From: Eledone cirrhosa
Lineage: Eukaryota
NCBI GenBank assembly: GCA_964016885.1
Contig: OZ024740.1
Span: 285,572,001 to 285,636,000, forward strand
Direction of reading: 5' to 3'
DNA: 64,000 nt
Positions 1,034-35,860 of this stretch are shown piece by piece. Numbering within the stretch: the first letter of the stretch is position 1; each line of letters begins with the position of its first letter. Position numbers and translations under genes: made by a program. Under the pieces are notes generated by a model. It did not search any database, was not told where the DNA came from, and saw nothing but the letters and a program-made list of their open reading frames with translations.

Positions 1034-3910
1034 ATATTATATAAATGTGAAATGGGCGAAAATTGTCTGAGTCGTGTCTGGATACAGGCAAAAGGGTAGT
1101 ACCAATGCTCTGATTGTCATGTCTACGTATGTATGTATGTATATATGTATCCTACACACATCCCTATACTATTTAACCTAAAATACTTTTATATCCATCT
1201 TTTAGTGAAGCATTTCCAATTCATTATACGTAAACAATGACATTAATTTTAATTTTTTGTTTAGCATTTTACATTCAATGCCTCTCTTTTTTAATGCAAC
1301 TTTTTATTGAAACGTTGTGCTGGCTAATATGATACATGGACCCTGTGGTGCCCTTAACAGCCAAAATTCATGCATGGAGGGGAACAAGTGCACCAAACAC
1401 TACCCCAGAGCCTCCACCAGGGAAACTTGCACTGGGGTTGACAGCTACCCCATCTACCGGCAAGTTGCTCCCGATTTTGGCGGCTTTCGGCTAGGATTAA
1501 GAAGAAAGGGAAAGAATACGACATTGACAACAGCTGGGTGGTGCCTTACAGCCCTTTGCTTGCTAAAATTTTTAATGCTCACATCAATGTGGAGTCCTGC
1601 ACATCTGTTAAAAGCATTAAATACATCTGCAAATACATCAACAAAGGCGGCGACATGGCGGTGGTTGGCCTCAATGATGGCGTAGAATCAAAAGACCAAA
1701 TTACTCAGTTCATGATGGGAAGATACATTTCGTCCAATATGGCGGCTTGGTGCATTTTGGGGCTTGAAATTCACCGGTGCTCTCCAGCAGTTGTTAACTT
1801 GGATGTTCACTTAGAGAATGGTCAACGCGTTTATTTCACTGAGGAAACCGCATGGGCTGCTGCCGAACAGCCACCTGAGACGACGCTTACAGCATTTTTA
1901 AAGCTATGTTCTGTCGATACGTTTGCAGTTACTCTTTTTTACGTCGATGTACCTACCTACTTCACTTGGTCGAACAAAAAATGGCATCGACGGCGACAAT
2001 GGGAAAAAGTTGAGGATTGGGTAGGTTTCTTCAGAAGTAATGCCATCGGACGCGTGTACAATGTTCATCCGAAGCAACAAGAATGCTTTTTCCTGCGAAT
2101 GTTGCTGCATCAAATCAAAGGGCCCAAGTCATTCGTCGACCTAAGACTTTTCGATGGCCACATTTGTTCCAGTTACAGAGACGCGTGCGTGAAGTGCGGG
2201 CTACTCGAAGATAATGCCCACCTGAACGTGGCGTTGACAGAGGCTGTTGAATGTAAGATGCCTCGAGAAATAAGACGTCTGTTTTGCATAATGCTATTGT
2301 TCTGCGGCATAGGTGAGCCCCTTAAGCTTTGGGAAACGCATAAGGACAACATGTCAGAGGACATCCTCCGTAGACTACGAGCAGAACATCCAGCGGCTGG
2401 CTTTGCTTTCAACGACGCGGTGTACAATGAGGCCCTCATCGACATGGAACACCATCTTAAAGCTCTTGGAGTTGGCGGTGTATCTGATTTTTTCCTGGAT
2501 GCTCCTGGCGGAACAGGAAAAATCTTTTCTCATCAACCTTTTGCTTACGAAGCTACGAAAAGACAAGCGGATTGCTTTAGCGGTCGCCTCCAGTTGTATT
2601 GCGGCGACACTGCTACATGGCGGTCGTACGGCACACTCCGCATTCAAATTACCTTTGGACATTGCGAAGAAGGAGAATCCTACATATAGAATAGATCGTG
2701 GCGACCCTAAAGCACATCTTCTTTCTGAGTGCTGCCTGGTCATATGGGACGAGGCTACCATGAGTCACAAGGCGGCTTTTGAGGCTCTGGATCGAACTAT
2801 CAAGGACTTGCGTCGGAACTCACGCGTCATGGGTGGAGTGACAGTACTGCTGGCTGGCGATTTCCGACAGACTCTTCCTGTTATCTAGAGGCACTAGAGC
2901 TGACGAAGTGAACGCATGCACCAAGTCGTCCTACGTATGGCAGTATGCCCACAAACTACATCTGACTACCAACATGAGAGTGCATGTGCATGGTGATGCA
3001 GACTCCATCGATTTCTCAAAACATGTCCTGGAAGTTGGTAATGGAACTACACCTGGAGTGGATGAAGAGCATATCCGTTTGCCTTTTGGAAACTTTGTCA
3101 AACATTGATGAATTAATGTCATCTGTATTTCCAGACCTTGAATCACGATTCCATGATCACACCTGGCTGAAAGGGAGAGCTATTTTGGCACCACACAATG
3201 CCACTGTTGACGTGATGAACCAAAAACTACTCGATCAGATTCCCGGAAATGAAGTCTCCTTCAAGTCGATTGACACCAATAAAAACACGGACGACGCCGT
3301 CATCTACCCAATTGAATTCTTCAACAGTCAACTATCTCCAGGACTTCCTCCTCATGTTCTGAAACTGAAGGTTGATGTGCTAGTTATGCTGATGAGAAAC
3401 CTGGATGCACCAGAACTATGCAACGGAACGCGTTTAATCATAAAAAAAATAAGGATCCAAATTCTGGAGACAACCATTTTGAACGGACCCGCTGCTGGCG
3501 TGACCAGGTTAATTATTCCTATACGCCTTAGTTCCTCTGACGTTCCCTATGAATTTACGCGACGGCAGTTTCCCATAAAACTCTGCTTTGCAATGACCAT
3601 GAACAAAGCACAAGGACAATCGCTGCAAGAGGTTGGCCTAAATCTAACACAGCAGGTATTTGCCCATGGTCAACTATACATCGGATGCTCCCGCGTCGGC
3701 AGTCCACACAATCTCTTCATTTGTTTCATTTGTGGTAACCCGGGCAACACCAGGAACGTTGTCTACAAAGAAGCCCTGCAATAACATCTTTGAACCCTAC
3801 TCCACCCAACGTCTCTCTGTCAAACCACTCTCTTCACGTCGCCCCTCAACTTATTAACTTAATAACAAGTGGACCCGAGTAGCCCCGAGTACAACCAGGC
3901 TCAGCTGCTA

Positions 3911-3911
<1 letters not shown>
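1034..3911 (+). mobile_element. Helitron, internally deleted and decayed
   Basis: RepHel remnants 1317-3784; 3' imperfect GC hairpin followed by CTAG (3908-3911) then T; 5' region ATATAAATGTGAAATGGG shared with the element at 16411-17350. The 5' boundary is approximate. Confidence 0.9.
1317..3784 (+). pseudogene. Helitron Rep/PIF1-like helicase (RepHel), frameshifted
   Basis: Motifs spread over several frames: MIHGPCG...C...C.K.YP, VPYSPLL...AHINVE, KYICKYINKG, VHLENGQRVYF, FLDAPGGTGK (Walker A), WDEATM, GDFRQTLPVI, LMRNLD...LCNGTRL, RRQFPIKLCFAMTMNKAQGQSL, HGQLYIGCSRV. Frameshifts and a stop are present, and most of the Rep domain is missing. Confidence 0.93.
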
Positions 3912-3969
<58 letters not shown>

Positions 3970-3991
3970 GTATGTATGTATGTATATATAT

Positions 3992-4032
<41 letters not shown>

Positions 4033-4064
4033 TATTTTTTTTTATGTATATATATATATGTATG

Positions 4065-4196
<132 letters not shown>

Positions 4197-4250
4197 ATAT
4201 ATATATATATGTATATATAAATGTATATATATATATATGTATATATAAAA

Positions 4251-4806
4251 ATTGAACACCAATTATATTATAGACACACTATATATCTCTATGGGTATTT
4301 AGTACTCAGAGAGATATTTACCTCATTTTATGAATTCTCCTATCTAAGTTGAGAAAAAAATTCGTTGCTGCTTACTGCTATTTTTTTAGCAGAACAGCCA
4401 TCAATTGGTCTGTGATATTTCCCGCTTTTTCTAGTAGCCAGTTCATGTGTGGGTTATTCTAACGGCCTTACTTACACTAGCTGGTAGTTGGCAATATATT
4501 TGCAGATAGTGGGACTAGTTTCCTACTGTATGGAAATAGCTATCTGATTAACTTTACTTCTCCGTTAGAAATTCTCTGAATCTCTAACCTTTTGTAAAGC
4601 GAAACCCCCGGTAATAGCATTATGAACGGGTAGATATTTGAATCATTTAAAAATTTTTTTAAAAGAATTGCTTAATGTTTGTTTGTTCTGCTCTTCTTAA
4701 TTTTTATAGTTCTGGTATCTCGAATTAGTACCATTGAACACCAATTATATTATAGACACACTATATATCTCTATGGGTACTTAGTACTCAGAGAGATATT
4801 TACCTC
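4251..4806. mobile_element. Non-coding element with 74-bp direct terminal repeats in (TA)n
   Basis: 4251-4324 is repeated at 4733-4806 (1 mismatch); (TA)n lies on both sides. Confidence 0.6.
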
Positions 4807-5022
4807 TTTATATATATATATATATATATATATGTAGATAAATTTACCAAAAATTTACGGTAGTGTCCAATCCGTATGAAGAACTCAATGTAATCCGGAT
4901 ATCATGAAAAGAGAAGATGCATTCAAAAACTATTTTCAGTGAAAATTAACGGAAAACAGAGTCAAGATAAATTAATAAAGTAATGAATAAACAAAGAAAC
5001 AGTTCCTTAGATTAAAAAAATT

Positions 5023-5162
5023 CATCATTTTACGATCGTTTCTAGGATATATATGTGTTAGAGTTGGTATGCATATTCTATAGATCTATGTAAAATATTT
5101 ATACAAACTATCAGAGGGAATATACATACCTACACATATATATGCCGTCTTCAGAAATAATG
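5023..5162 (-). ncRNA. Type I hammerhead ribozyme with ~105-nt stem II domain
   Basis: Minus strand reads CATTATTT-CTGAAGA-cGGcATATATATGTGT...ACACATATATATCCta-GAAA-CGATCG-TA-AAATGATG: intact core, 8-bp stem I, palindromic stem III. Confidence 0.75.
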
Positions 5163-5553
5163 ATATTTGTTTATTGAAAAAAACAAAGATTCAATACAAT
5201 AGGTCTGTTTGGGAACAGGTTTTGAATTGACCAATAGAAAGATAGTGAAGGTCAAGATAGTAATCTAGTAGTAAAAGAACCTTAATTTATGGGTAGAGGG
5301 AGGTAGATTTCAGTTTTGGATGGAAAAGAATATTATGAATGAAAGATTATTTTAGGGATGAAAATAGGTCGTATGCTGACCTCAGAAATAATTATATTTG
5401 TTCATTGAATAAAATCAACAAAGATTTGATATAGTCTGTCTGTTTGGTAACCGGTTTAGAATTAACCAATAGAAAGTTAATAATTGGCCAAATGGTAAAA
5501 TAGTAGTAATTGAAGTTTATTTTAGGGGTAGATGAAGGTAGATTTCAGTTTTG
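5151..5553. repeat. Diverged tandem duplication (~230-bp period) upstream of the 5023-5162 HHR
   Basis: TCAGAAATAA...ACCAATAGAAAG...AGGTAGATTTCAGTTTTG occurs at ~5151-5318 and ~5381-5553. Confidence 0.65.
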
Positions 5554-6878: not shown

Positions 6879-7340
6879 TACAATATTAAATAAATGGAAA
6901 ACTATATTTATAAAACCATATTTATTTCATTATATATATTTCGGGGATATCATATTAACAATATGCTATGCCTTCATCAGACAAAATACAATATAAACAG
7001 TTTTATAGATAAATAGATTCGACATACCGTAATAACACCGACTTCATTTGAAGAGGTTTACGCTGGCAGCGTAAACCTCTTCAAATGAAGTCGGTGTTAT
7101 TACGGTATGTCGAATCTATTTATCTATAAAACTGTTTATATTGTATTTTGTCTGATGAAGGCATAGCATATTGTTAATATGATATCCCCGAAATATATAT
7201 AATGAAATAAATATGGTTTTATAAATATAGTTTTCCATTTATTTAATATTGTAAATATACTCCAAATATTTGTCGAGTGCTTTTATATCAGTTATAAATA
7301 TTTACTAGTTGTAACCCAACAATTTTAAATATAACTTTAC
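6879..7340. mobile_element. Perfect palindromic element with an HHR in each arm
   Basis: 187-bp arms 6879-7065/7067-7253 around a single central base; right arm extended ~85 nt; flanked by TA-rich microsatellite. Confidence 0.85.
7144..7209 (+). ncRNA. Type I hammerhead ribozyme (mirror copy on the minus strand at 6923-6988)
   Basis: TATTTTGT-CTGATGA-aGG..CATATT-gtt-AATATG..CC-GAAA-TATATA-TA-ATGAAATA. Confidence 0.75.
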
Positions 7341-7948: not shown

Positions 7949-8211
7949 CTGATGGTAGCTAAGATGCTTCCATAGGCGGTATGCCGGTTGAGCACTCTAT
8001 CTTCTTACAGAGCAGAGTATGATATAATATAAAACGAAAATCAGTGATGCAGCTGAACTCAATTTATTGTAAGTTACAATTGTTTCGCCGGCGGACAGCA
8101 GAGACGCGATCATTAAGTGGACCCACACAATGATCGTGTCTCGAGCTGTCCGCCGGCGAAACAATTGTAACACAATAAATTGAGTTCAGCTGCATCACTG
8201 ATTTTTCGTTT

Positions 8212-8829: not shown

Positions 8830-9576
8830 TCACTCATTCTTTCTGTTTAGCTTTGGTCTTCTAATTTCTATTTCACTGGCCTCTCTGATTTGCCTATCTG
8901 CTGGGTCATTCCTATGTTTAGATATTATTCTAATTTCTATGTTGTCTATGTTACCGTCATGTTGTTGTCTAGCATGTTCGTATAGTACTGACCCGTTTTT
9001 TCGTCCTTTTAGTTCCCCCCAGTGTTGGTCTATCCTTTCACCTATGCTACGAGCTGTCTCACCTATGTATGTTGTTGTCATGTTTCTGCAAGTACCCTCT
9101 GTACATCTTATGCTATAGACTACGTTTCTAGTTTTACAGTTTATCCGGGGGTTCACCTTACATATGATACATTTCCTATTGGTACAGTGGGTTTTCTTAA
9201 AAGGGTAGGTTTTGCTGATCAGGGATTTTATGGTGGTTCCTGGCTTTTCTACCACCTTTATTTTTAAGTGGGTCTTTCTCAGGGCCTTTCTACACTGGTT
9301 AGCTAATTTCCCTCCAGGGGTGGCGTCCACAAACATGACACTCTGATATCTCTGGTTGTTGTACCATGATGTGGCCTTCCCTATCTTATGTCTAGCCCTA
9401 TCTAAGCTATTCCATGATTTGCTCCTGTATAGTGGGCAAATTCCTTTCATGTCCAGTTCTATGAGGGTCTTATACTTTTCCATGGCTCCTTCGTATACTC
9501 TGACTCTGTCTCTTTGGTTGTAGCCAGAGAACTGCATGCGGTTGATGAAGTGTTGGATGTGTCTTTCCATTTCTGT
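8830..9576 (-). pseudogene. PLE ORF C-terminus: RT thumb/linker + GIY-YIG endonuclease (fragment)
   Basis: CTNRKCIICK linker and CKTRNVVYSIRC...YIGETARSIGERIDQH...LYEH...RQIREASEI...PKLNRKNE. The ORF track's N-terminal extension runs through (TA)n and an unrelated hairpin. Confidence 0.85.
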
Positions 9577-9598
9577 ATATATATATATATATATATAT

Positions 9599-9800
9599 AA
9601 CAAAGGAAATGTGGCGAGGAACCAGATGGACCATAACGCACCAGAGTACTCAATACTTAGGGTAGTAGAGTGGGAAATAGGAAAAAGTATGACCCCGACG
9701 GCAGAGCTCAAGCCGTTTCGACGGCTATTTCTGGACAACATCCAGAAATAGCCGTCGAAACGGCTTGAGCTCTGCCGTCGGGGGTCATACTTTTTACTAT
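9599..9800 (-). mobile_element. Fold-back hairpin element with a duplicated HHR 3' half
   Basis: Arms 9677-9735/9741-9800; GAAA-CGGC-ttgagctct-GCCG-TC-GGGGTCAT; ~78-nt extension on the left; (TA)n flanks; second copy at 35663-35860. Confidence 0.75.
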
Positions 9801-9810
9801 ATATACATAC

Positions 9811-9889
<79 letters not shown>

Positions 9890-9890
<1 letters not shown>

Positions 9891-10140
9891 TATAAATATA
9901 GAGTTAAAAACTCAAACAGTCTTTTATAATTAAATAGCTCAAAGAAAGAAATATTTCTGAGCCGTGAAATACAAGTTAATATAAATTAATATATATGATA
10001 AACACTAATACAATCATATTAGTGTTTGTATTGTAAATGACCATGTTAGCTAGATTGAAAAATAGCTAACATTTACAATACAAACACTAATATGATTGTA
10101 TTAGTGTTTATCATATATATTAATTTATATTAACTTGTAT
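9890..10140. repeat. AT-rich asymmetric palindrome between (TA)n tracts
   Basis: Inverted arms span 9969-10140; each arm contains an internal hairpin (AAACACTAATA/TATTAGTGTTT); ~80-nt left extension. Confidence 0.7.
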
Positions 10141-11223: not shown

Positions 11224-14200
11224 ATAAGTCTCTTTGTATGTTGATGTACGCGTGTGTATGTGTTTGTGTATATGTGTGTGTGTGTGTGTGGGTGGACCAG
11301 TATTTTTTTCCCCCTGGTAAAATGGTGTACATTATTCGATTTTTTCAGTAAAATCGGTTCTCTTAATAGAACATCAAAAATCTTAACAATAAAAGGTGTG
11401 AAATGATATTCACTATATATATATACACACATACATATATCCACTACATATATATATATATACATATATACATACATATATATGCACACATATTTCTTTG
11501 TATTGCACCATAGAGCATGTGTGTTTACGTGTGTCATTGTGTTTATATGTGGGTAGAGATGTGTGCTGATGTATGTATGTATGTTGACGTGTGTATGTTG
11601 TGGGTTCGTCTTAGGGAGAAGTGTTTAGACGGGGTCCGTATTTGTTAATGAAGTAAGATTCCTTGCTGATGCGCTGGGTGTGGGTGGCATTATCTTTAAA
11701 TTTGTAGAGGGGAAAGATTCTGAAGTTGGGATGATTTTGGGCGGCACAGGTATCAATGTGTTCACTCAGTGGTATTTTCCTGTATTCCCGTATTTTAATT
11801 TGGGATCTATGGACAGTCATGCGTTGGCGGAGGCTGTTTTTGGTCTGGCCTATGTATTGTTCTCGACAACCTGAACAAGTTAATACATATATTAGATTTT
11901 CCGATGCACATGTGAAATTGTGTTTTACTATAAAACGTTGTCCATCTTTGAAATAGAATTCCGAACCCTCTATTAGGTTGATGCAAATGCCACAGTTGGG
12001 TCTGTCGCATTTTTTTTACTGTGGGTTTCGTTGTTGTGGTTGGCAGTACTTTGGCATGTGTTAAGATGTTTTTCATTGACTTGGATTGTCTTTTGCTCTT
12101 TATGATATCGTGTGTTCGTAGAATTTGGTTCATTCTATGGTCCTTTTTCAATACAGGGATGTTCTGGAGGATGGTGTCAAAGGCCTCATTGTTGAGGGGG
12201 TTGTGTGTGGAGATGTATGGAAGAGCTTTTAGTTTTGGTTGATTAACTTTAGGGTGTCTAAGGTCCTGGGTACTGAGTTTTAGGGCACGTTGGATTCCAT
12301 TGTCAATTAGTGATGCAGGGTAGTCCCTGCCTATGAGTGTGTCCTTTAGTTCTTGTAGCCGTAAGTAGCAGATGTTTTTATTGGAGACTATAGTACAGAT
12401 TCTCTTGGCTAAGTTGTAGGGAATATTAATTTTAACGTGTCTAGGGTGGCAAGAGTTGAAGGGGAGATATTGCTTGGAGTCTGTGGGCTTGTAGTATATG
12501 TCTGTTTCTATTTTTTTGTTATGGATCTTAATGAGGATGTCGAGGAAGGGGAGTTGTTGATGGCTGTATTCCATCGTGAAGTTAATATTTGTGTTGAGCC
12601 CATTTATAAGGGTGTGAAATTCTTTAAGTTTTTCGATGTTTTCGTGCCAAAGGATGAAGCAGTCATCTAGATATCGCTTCCAGTTCCTTTCAATGTGTAA
12701 GTGGAGGGTGTTTCCAAATTTGTTTAGGACTTTAGTGTAGAGGGTGATTTCCAGGTATCCCATGACTAGGTTGGCATAAGTAGGGGCTGTTTTCGTTCCC
12801 ATAGCGGTCCCAGATTTCTGCCTGTAGGGTTTGTTGTTGAAAACGAAGTAATTGTTCTCCATGATAAATTTGAGTCTCTCTATCACGAATTCTTTTTTGA
12901 TGCGTTGTGGGAGTTCATTGTGGAAATTATCCAGCCAGAATTGGATAGCTTCTATTCCTAGGTTGTGGGGGATGTTGGAGTATAGGTTGACTACATCGAA
13001 CGTCACTAGTAGGGTTTGTTCAGAAATTGGCATATTAGGGAGGTGATTGAGCATATCTAGGTCGTCCCTTATATAGCTTTTGATGTGCTTGAGGAAGGGT
13101 TTGAGAAGGGTATCAATGAAGTTGCTAAGACGGTGCGTTTCGCAAGCGGGGCCTGCTATTATAGGTCTTAATTTGAGATCATTGGGTGAGGGGACATTGA
13201 TGACTATGTCTGTGGCTTCCTTGCATGCCTTACTGATTGATTCGCTTTTATGTACTTTAGGGATACCGTAGAAAAGGCTGGATTTACTTGTGAAGTCTGT
13301 GATGAAGCTGAATTCCTTGTTAGTGAGTCCTTCTTTGTATTGGTTGATTAGAGTTTTTAGGTTTCTCATAATTTTCTGTTGATTGTAGTGTTCAGCCTTT
13401 TCGTAGTATGTTTCGTTTTCCAAAGTGGAGAGCGCTAAGTTAATATAGAATTCTGTCTCCATTAGGACTACTGTACTCCCTTTATCAGCCTCTTTAATTG
13501 TAATGGTTCTGTCGGTTTTTAATCTATTTAATTCTTCCCATTCTTTCTTGTTGAGGTTTGGCTTGTGTTTTTGTCTGTGCAAGTGTTGGTAAGGGAAGTT
13601 TGTGATGTGTTCACAGAATTCGTCCAGGATTTTATTTCTACCTTTTGAAGGGGTGTAATTGCTTCTATTTCTGGCTAATGATTCATCCTCATTGTACTGG
13701 TCGAATAGTTGTTCACTAAGTCGTAACTTTCTACAGAAGTCTGTGATGTCTTCCTTCATTTCATAGTAGTTAGGACGTAGTGGGGTCGGTGTGAATTTAA
13801 GACCTTTGGAGAGTAAGTTGATAAGGTTGGGTGTTGGTTCTGCACTAGTAAGATTGATAATTTTTATTACTATCGGTTTCTCCTCCCTGTCTTGTGTTAT
13901 TTTGTTTGCCTGTATCTGTGTGCTGTGTCTAAAAAATGGTTGGGGTAGAGGGGTTGTCTGCTGATGTTAAGTGGTCTCCTGTGTTTGTTATATTCCTTGT
14001 TGTTGTAAAATGTGGTTCGGGTTGGTGGTTGTAGATTGAATGGGGTGTTCCTGTACTGCGAGTATGGGTGTGTGTTTCTATGTGCCATGTTGTATTGTGG
14101 TGTTATAAGTGGCCTACGTTGTTGGTTGTATCGTGTGGTGTGGGTTTGTTGTGTATTGTGGAAGTGAGAGTTGAGAAAATGGTAATTACCTTGCTGTCCC

Positions 14201-35662: not shown

Positions 35663-35667
<5 letters not shown>

Positions 35668-35856
35668 AACAAGTATGACCTCGACGGCAGAGCTCAAGCC
35701 GCTTCGACGGCTATTTCTGAGTCCAGAAATAGCCGTCGAAACGGCTTGAGCTCTGCCGTCGGGGTCATACTTGTTCCTATTACCCACTCTACTACCCTAA
35801 TTATTGAGTACTTTGATGCGTTATGGTCCATCAGGTTCCTTACCACTATTCCTTCG

Positions 35857-35860
<4 letters not shown>
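35663..35860 (+). mobile_element. Fold-back hairpin element with a duplicated HHR 3' half (family of 9599-9800)
   Basis: Arms span 35663-35780; GAAA 35738-35741; GTC 35758-35760; 80-nt extension; (TA)n on both sides. Confidence 0.8.

Follow-up and report, generated by a model that had tools for sequence, protein, structure and literature searches.

Insertions of Penelope-like elements (PLEs) are described as carrying an inverted truncated copy and a tail on one side only, and the accessible text of PMC8557442 names the origin of tandem and inverted PLE insertions, together with the role of the hammerhead, among open questions. Transcription start sites inside the pseudo-LTR (pLTR) are known for Penelope and for one Chlamys element in the published excerpts available. 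The U3-A8 core is a described variant of PLE hammerheads, and such motifs generally cleave weakly in vitro according to the available part of PMC4209133. The element PAc nicks and extends both target strands in vitro and has two internal RT starts that bound its tail, as given in the accessible sections of PMC11167929, and an extra G is the mark of cap copying in L1 insertions in those of PMC11702581. Thus each single feature of the family considered here (its element type, its inverted layout and tail, internal priming, a promoter in the pLTR and the U3-A8 core) has a published precedent. A literature search restricted to main texts, with few subscription papers among them, returned no transcription start in loop II, no cap-marked run-off palindromes and no PLE-hammerhead cleavage footprints; the Hydra hammerhead list that PMC8557442 cites as its supplementary file S2 may bear on novelty.

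The locus described here lies in a stretch of 64,000 nucleotides from Eledone cirrhosa (the window; assembly GCA_964016885.1, contig OZ024740.1, positions 285,572,001–285,636,000 of the forward strand). Judged by sequence comparison, its hairpin unit at 9599–9800 is a pair of 5'-truncated Hydra-type PLE copies inserted head to head in (TA)n. As a single locus it is an ordinary dead insertion; it belongs to a genome-wide family of such stubs, whose junctions make questions of PLE mechanism testable.

The hairpin unit and its relatives

The unit (9599–9800) has the layout of the 30 best loci of its family, that is, a head-to-head pair of 5'-truncated pLTR ends. Its (TA)n target is read directly from the sequence on the left (9576–9598) and on the right (9801–9900), and nearly all inspected copies lie in (TA)n. 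A 78-nt PLE tail is attached to one arm only (9599–9676, reverse strand); the corresponding segment of the complete copy L089 (3209–3288) continues through the ORF leader to the ATG at 3380, and the outer end of the tail would be the distal RT start. Arm 1 (9677–9736, reverse strand), identified by its sequence and by comparison with long copies as the hammerhead 3' half of the tailed copy, appears to begin one base short of the putative transcription start. Four letters that match neither arm form a joint (9737–9740) of a kind that varies between copies. Arm 2 (9741–9800, forward strand), the hammerhead 3' half of the tail-less copy, extends to the short end, which also closes L089 at 6327 and is probably the proximal RT start, with a TAT common to the element and the TA target. 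Within arm 2, on the forward strand, lie the 3' strand of stem II (9746–9756), which pairs with its 5' strand in long copies, with three compensatory pairs between subfamilies; the GAAA, stem III with its palindromic GAGCTC loop and the GUC site (9757–9779), placed by the fold of a long copy and by the class of junctions at the cut site; and the 3' strand of stem I (9780–9785), which pairs in long copies with the ACCCC directly before the core. In window-copy numbering the predicted hammerhead cut falls between 9779 and 9780.

The arms form a perfect 43-bp inverted repeat (9693–9735 and 9741–9783) around a 5-nt loop and, past a one-base bulge, reach about 57 bp in total. The unit folds at −132 kcal/mol (z −20.3), a value equalled by none of 200 shuffles, and the transcript predicted across it is a near-perfect duplex of ~57 bp (−120 kcal/mol) with the GUC site buried. 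Inspection of the unit sequence found no CTGANGA between the arms, and an Rfam scan of the 64-kb window gave nothing at gathering level. The catalytic core is absent from the window copy, in which both arms begin ~40 nt downstream of the core position. Over 138 nt the tailed arm shares 96% identity with the long copies L121 and L069, and the whole unit matches the pLTR plus tail of L089 at 87–90%. On the account given below, the window copy would have lost one base from one end and two from the other and gained a four-base insert.

The unit recurs throughout the genome. A search of 3.0 Gb scored 40 of 2,884 candidates, and 39 of the 40, the window copy included, are full length at 93–100% identity. 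In the 30 best loci the order of 78 unique bases, arm, copy-specific joint and inverted arm is constant, and nearly all have (TA)n to their left and right. Exact matches to a 34-base arm pattern number 21,897 versus 0 for its reversed control, which, together with this recurrence, argues that the window hairpin is not a product of chance. For an anchor close to the short end, 63,578 matches were counted versus 11 for the control, and two arms lie no more than 30 bases apart at 12,582 loci, so that at least 12,582 loci are palindromic. In samples drawn mostly from the start of one contig, the tail is present on one arm and absent from the other in 32 of 33 palindromes of one set and in 48 of 50 of the cut-site class, the two exceptions among these 50 being mutated tails. 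Within the window, sequence comparison places a second member of the family at 35663–35858 (forward strand), with the same tail-plus-short layout in the opposite orientation. Membership among MITEs was rejected because terminal inverted repeats are lacking at both ends, one end being the unpaired 78-nt tail, and membership among non-LTR retrozymes because the unit is head to head and coreless and not a head-to-tail array of whole hammerheads.

Some of the arm matches, of which the first 23 Mb of contig 1 hold at least 83, extend upstream into a common long sequence. One complete copy of it, L089, consists of an inverted truncated copy with tail, a partial tandem, an ORF and a final pLTR that terminates at the short end, with a unit of ~3.1 kb. 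The ORF (3380–5539) is free of stops over 719 codons and contains YRDD, DKT, CxCX5C, a GIY-YIG-type motif (VIY..YIG) and, near its end, CxxC and CxH, with RWR at the position where the Hydra clade has RWK. A motif scan found no CX2-5CxxC in it and a Pfam scan gave no match to it; the best of its 2,054 homologs carries PF01541 (GIY-YIG), and ORF remnants in L069 are 81–88% identical to the L089 protein. L089 has the features of EN+ PLEs, namely a single ORF with RT and, at the C terminus, a GIY-YIG-type motif, partial-tandem pLTRs, an inverted 5'-truncated copy and a tail at one end, and those of the Hydra clade, namely DKT, CxCX5C, absence of CX2-5CxxC, CxxC plus CxH and a (TA)n target. As the source element is assigned from motifs alone, it is labelled Hydra-type.

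Long copies carry, in order, ACCCC, UUGANAA, a long stem II with a ~33-nt loop, GAAA, stem III and GUC. A relaxed core pattern (UUGANAA/CUGANAA type) has 6,898 matches in the genome, and the first 100 of these, classed by eye with the hammerhead position numbering (3, 8), comprise 75 U3-A8, 24 C3-A8, 1 G3-A8 and 0 G8; the canonical C3-G8 core (CUGANGA) has 11 matches genome-wide. A complete type I hammerhead is thus present in the long copies; its core is non-canonical, in most cases UUGANAA (U3-A8), and ribozyme searches demanding CUGANGA miss it. The minimum-energy fold of the L089 hammerhead is a three-way junction of type I and is not unusually stable (z 0.41). No covariation was found among 25 young long copies; when 13 copies of an older subfamily are added, 93.8% of stem cells are paired, and the three stem II pairs compensated between the two subfamilies amount to three events between two lineages. 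An Rfam scan of one long copy gave no hammerhead match. The C3-A8 mismatch occurs in about a quarter of the listed cores (e.g., L107 and L134) and is inherited as a subfamily trait, which implies that a weak or dead ribozyme would be no barrier to spread of the element.

An earlier note, made from the window sequence, had read the unit as a hairpin containing a hammerhead 3' half, with partners for stems I and II on its left arm and the antisense of stem III in place of a CUGANGA core, and had taken it for either a catalytically dead fold-back product or a substrate strand cleaved in trans. The hairpin is real and its motifs are where the note had placed them, with ATGACCCC at 9689–9696, GACGGCTATTTCTGG at 9720–9734, GAAA at 9757–9760, CGGC and GCCG enclosing a 9-nt loop, and TC at 9778–9779 followed by GGGGGTCAT. 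As the long copies reveal, a genuine type I hammerhead contributes its 3' half as the right arm, and the description of the window copy as dead agrees with its missing core. A relative with an intact core, which the note had regarded as necessary, exists in the UUGANAA/CUGANAA form and hardly at all in the expected CUGANGA form (6,898 versus 11 matches). Because the long copies hold the whole core, the window unit is seen to consist of two 3' halves; nothing replaced the core, and the supposed partners are just the antisense of the second truncated copy. A search for CTGANGA upstream of an arm gave 42 matches, and the 30 inspected are collapsed loops, junction inserts, chimeras with other PLE ends and one long copy with its own core, while a search for a core next to the proposed stem II partner gave 8 matches, made up of 7 copies of an unrelated repeat and 1 chance junction. 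At L033, L034, L040 and L059 (~1500), the end of another repeat abuts an arm of the family immediately behind a canonical CTGANGA core, and these joins are chimeric hammerhead-like sequences with mostly non-cognate stems.

Other mobile elements also occur in the window. A 5'-truncated PLE ORF end at 8830–9575 (reverse strand), with a Neptune-like CX4CXXC linker and a CTGACGA hammerhead-like core at ~8509, belongs to another family and lies in the same (TA)n as the unit; it was rejected as a part of the unit since the flanks of other copies are unrelated and its identity to the family ORF is 28% over 106 aa. Perfect fold-backs at 493–920, 6879–7253, 8073–8171 and 9969–10140 have arms of 211, 187, 27 and 71 bp, respectively, with canonical CTGANGA cores on both arms of the first two, and all four are probably head-to-head stubs of other PLE families. 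RT (PF00078) and GIY-YIG (PF01541) domains in two frames at 11611–13966 (reverse strand) represent another PLE with a frameshift, and broken ORFs with a Pif1 helicase domain (PF21530) at 1311–3784 (forward strand) are presumably Helitron-like by resemblance.

Positions at which the arms end

Each arm of the first 100 of the 63,578 anchor matches was aligned to natural long copies; most arms and junctions sampled in this section lie near the beginning of one contig. The arms end within 49 nt upstream of the anchor in 85 cases, at 50–250 nt in 2 and beyond that in 13, so that 85 of 100 stop at or before one wall within loop II; the stop rate per base is 0.176 at 44–49 nt versus 0.0014 at 50–100 nt. 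Tailed arms (44 of 54) and short arms (41 of 46) respect the wall alike (p = 0.40), although the tailed cDNA is 78 nt longer than the short one, so what defines the wall is a position on the RNA and not the distance copied. The wall coincides with the A of TTAGTC, a site that resembles the initiator consensus. In 53 of 224 arm ends, the sequence runs 1–3 bases beyond this A into a template T run, which means either that the start is fuzzy or that an untemplated A mimics the template. Contigs of a sequencing run on the unit and on the long pLTR have a depth step near the wall and near the tail end, which was left uncounted because depth is not copy number and the run may be of the source sample.

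Where the template has T or C before the wall A, the first 100 of 2,225 matches with a purine there show 92 G and 8 A (counted by eye), and in 22 of the 92, within one subfamily, the G could derive from the opposite arm. Among 32 arms scored by script, the clear cases comprise 26 G versus 3 A at the wall, compared with a G:A ratio of 9:26 at other positions (p = 2e-7). In the older subfamily the excess of G had been predicted beforehand, and 81 G versus 19 A were counted by eye in 100 of 102 matches; a count of 15:3 was set aside because it includes loci picked by a biased pattern. Together, the wall and the extra G point to a capped transcription start that would split the ribozyme. The arm ends that run past the A speak against this reading, as does an out-of-frame ATG in the leader, which would measure 232 nt from the putative start to the ATG of the ORF.

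At 342 loci both arms end near the GUC. Among the first 50 of these, 35 have both arms ending at G+1, the base that directly follows the predicted cut; they are made up of 24 junctions with inserted letters and 11 direct CCCC/GGGG joins, which are ambiguous; extrapolation of this fraction gives ~240 loci. The 66 unambiguous arm ends of the class comprise 55 at G+1, 8 that are one base shorter and 3 that are longer, whereas sampled arms end exactly at G+1 in 0 of 100 cases and within one base of it in 6 of 100. The letter before G+1 is T in 24, A in 18 and G in 6 cases and differs from that at the wall (p = 2e-6). These ends suggest hammerhead cleavage in vivo, and the letters would fit an uncapped, ribozyme-made RNA end with an untemplated A; the G run by itself could also favour breaks at the cut site. 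With 342 versus 12,582 loci the cut-site route is minor, in line with PAc, for which uncut RNA is the main template in the available text of PMC11167929. The subfamily of the window copy accounts, by eye, for 24 of 100 anchor matches versus 3 of 50 cut-site junctions, a scarcity that may reflect weaker cleavage, age or pattern bias.

Formation of the palindromes

The account that we consider probable is that head-to-head stubs form when the reverse transcriptase of the element starts one cDNA at each of two internal sites close to the 5' end of its own capped mRNA. The pLTR promoter would start transcription at the A of TTAGTC in loop II, as read from DNA junctions, and the resulting mRNA would contain only the 3' half of the ribozyme, so that its cap would be kept. 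The endonuclease would cut both strands of (TA)n and each 3' end would prime one cDNA, with one cDNA starting at the short end and the other 78 nt further on. Both would extend as far as the 5' end of the RNA, in many cases with the cap copied and an untemplated A added, and would then be end-joined with some trimming. Read-through RNAs would contain the whole hammerhead, and after the cut their 3' product would give rise to the shorter stubs that end at the cut. In an ORF copy with a tail-less last pLTR, such as L089, the start sites would be available only near the 5' end of its mRNA, and stubs would accordingly be in excess.

A broader reading, which we judge to have an even chance of being right, is that the mRNA begins inside loop II of the hammerhead that the element encodes, so that it has just the substrate half and retains its cap, whereas read-through RNA undergoes cleavage, that the stubs, in their tens of thousands, are a fossil map of the capped start and of the cut made in vivo by a U3-A8 ribozyme, that inverted insertions are two cDNAs started at the tail boundaries, and that the capped mRNA is a possible trans substrate of the read-through RNA, which would act as a brake on copy number. 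The trans substrate could be the element's putative mRNA and not the stub RNA. If true, this would be genomic evidence of PLE hammerhead cutting in vivo, with cut RNA occasionally retrotransposed, and it would explain why most copies are tiny palindromes and provide exact RNA ends.

The two arms of a palindrome seem to come from the same source. They are the same at all diagnostic sites in 22 of 33 palindromes, compared with a mean of 7.5 and a maximum of 15 in 5,000 shuffles, and they share subfamily letters in 49 of 50 palindromes of the cut-site class. That both arms are nearly always of one subfamily would also be expected if a single cDNA reached the RNA 5' end, folded back, copied itself and stopped at the short end by pairing between TAT and the target, and a single template likewise suits the cut-class arms, which share one end base at which 0 of 100 sampled arms stop exactly. 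Such fold-back is nevertheless unlikely. A short cDNA has no tail to copy, and in 26 pairs the further 5' reach belongs to the short arm in 13, to the tailed arm in 11 and to neither in 2; the 13 longer short arms are not predicted by simple fold-back from a tailed cDNA, and the origin by stem II fold-back that the earlier note had offered fits them poorly. Moreover, at several junctions each arm carries its own extra G, the two being separated by one base, and L089 has a short-ended arm of ~5 kb versus a tailed inverted arm of ~0.8 kb. We infer two cDNAs, one per target strand, that ran off the RNA end and were then joined.

The wall is deduced from DNA junctions alone, and it might instead mark a splice acceptor (TTTAG), a site of RNA processing or a block to RT, with the G as a context-dependent untemplated addition; in sequence it looks like a 3' splice site, and it is located within a possible extension of stem II. 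This is improbable given that TTAGT(C) is kept in both subfamilies while the remainder of loop II diverges, and that G dominates at the wall and not at cut-site ends (p = 2e-6). A splice acceptor is further opposed by the AG retained in the stubs, and no common upstream exon was seen at the junctions. A capped start in loop II is preferred.

The uniform size, fixed ends and high copy number of the 200-bp palindrome would suit a self-propagating MITE- or SINE-like element with a loop altered after insertion, and it is easy to misclassify such stubs as MITEs or SINEs. Terminal inverted repeats are lacking, however, each copy has its own junction, kilobase-long insertions with an ORF are closed by the same two ends, and arms are also found joined to unrelated sequence, all of which makes this reading very improbable. 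It is equally hard to credit that the hairpin RNA is cut in trans by a core-supplying RNA, as the earlier note had suggested, for although the whole substrate half of a split hammerhead is present and core-bearing relatives are abundant, the ~57-bp near-perfect duplex (−120 kcal/mol) buries the site and makes the unit RNA a poor trans substrate.

Comparison with described elements

Retroviral strong-stop DNA is formed when cDNA runs off the capped 5' end of the RNA. The proposed cDNA run-off at a capped 5' end, with an extra G, also resembles that of cap-derived-G full-length L1 insertions as far as the available text of PMC11702581 describes them; unlike in L1 and strong-stop DNA, the run-off product here would be only 60–140 nt long, made twice and inserted as a palindrome. 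The non-LTR retrozymes of bioRxiv 10.64898/2026.07.22.740005 are likewise short, non-coding, PLE-related repeats with type I hammerhead sequence, but in the accessible part of that report they are head-to-tail tandems with a whole ribozyme per unit, whereas the window unit is head to head and coreless.

The hammerhead itself resembles those of PLEs in the available sections of Cervera and de la Pena (2014, PMC4209133) in its type I fold, short stem I, long stem II with an unpaired base near its start, palindromic loop III and U3-A8 variant, and pairs of motifs on opposite strands are ascribed there to truncated PLEs. It differs from them in its full 5-bp stem III, in its ~33-nt loop II with a putative promoter start and in that most genomic copies retain the 3' half only. 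With PAc, a Poseidon element of Anolis, the family shares, in the accessible text of Frangieh et al. (2024, PMC11167929), a hammerhead and an AT-rich target, and it would also share two internal RT starts that bound the tail just downstream of the hammerhead, extension of both strands and uncut RNA as the main template. For PAc, that text reports no RNA-seq reads ending at the ribozyme site, whereas ~240 loci have such ends here on both arms as DNA junctions; the PAc ORF starts at stem II, whereas here transcription appears to start in loop II, with the ATG 232 nt later.

Hydra-clade EN+ PLEs, as portrayed in the accessible sections of Craig et al. (2021, PMC8557442), share with it the C-terminal GIY-YIG-type domain, DKT, the CxCX5C linker, CxxC, CxH, targeting of (TA)n, a hammerhead in the pLTR, the inverted 5'-truncated copy and the one-sided tail. 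In comparison with that account, the element described here has RWR instead of RWK, a length of ~3.1 kb where Hydra-clade elements are generally <3 kb, a tail of 78 nt where those of PLEs are 30–40 bp, a non-canonical hammerhead core and more than 60,000 arms in its genome, most of them ultra-short.
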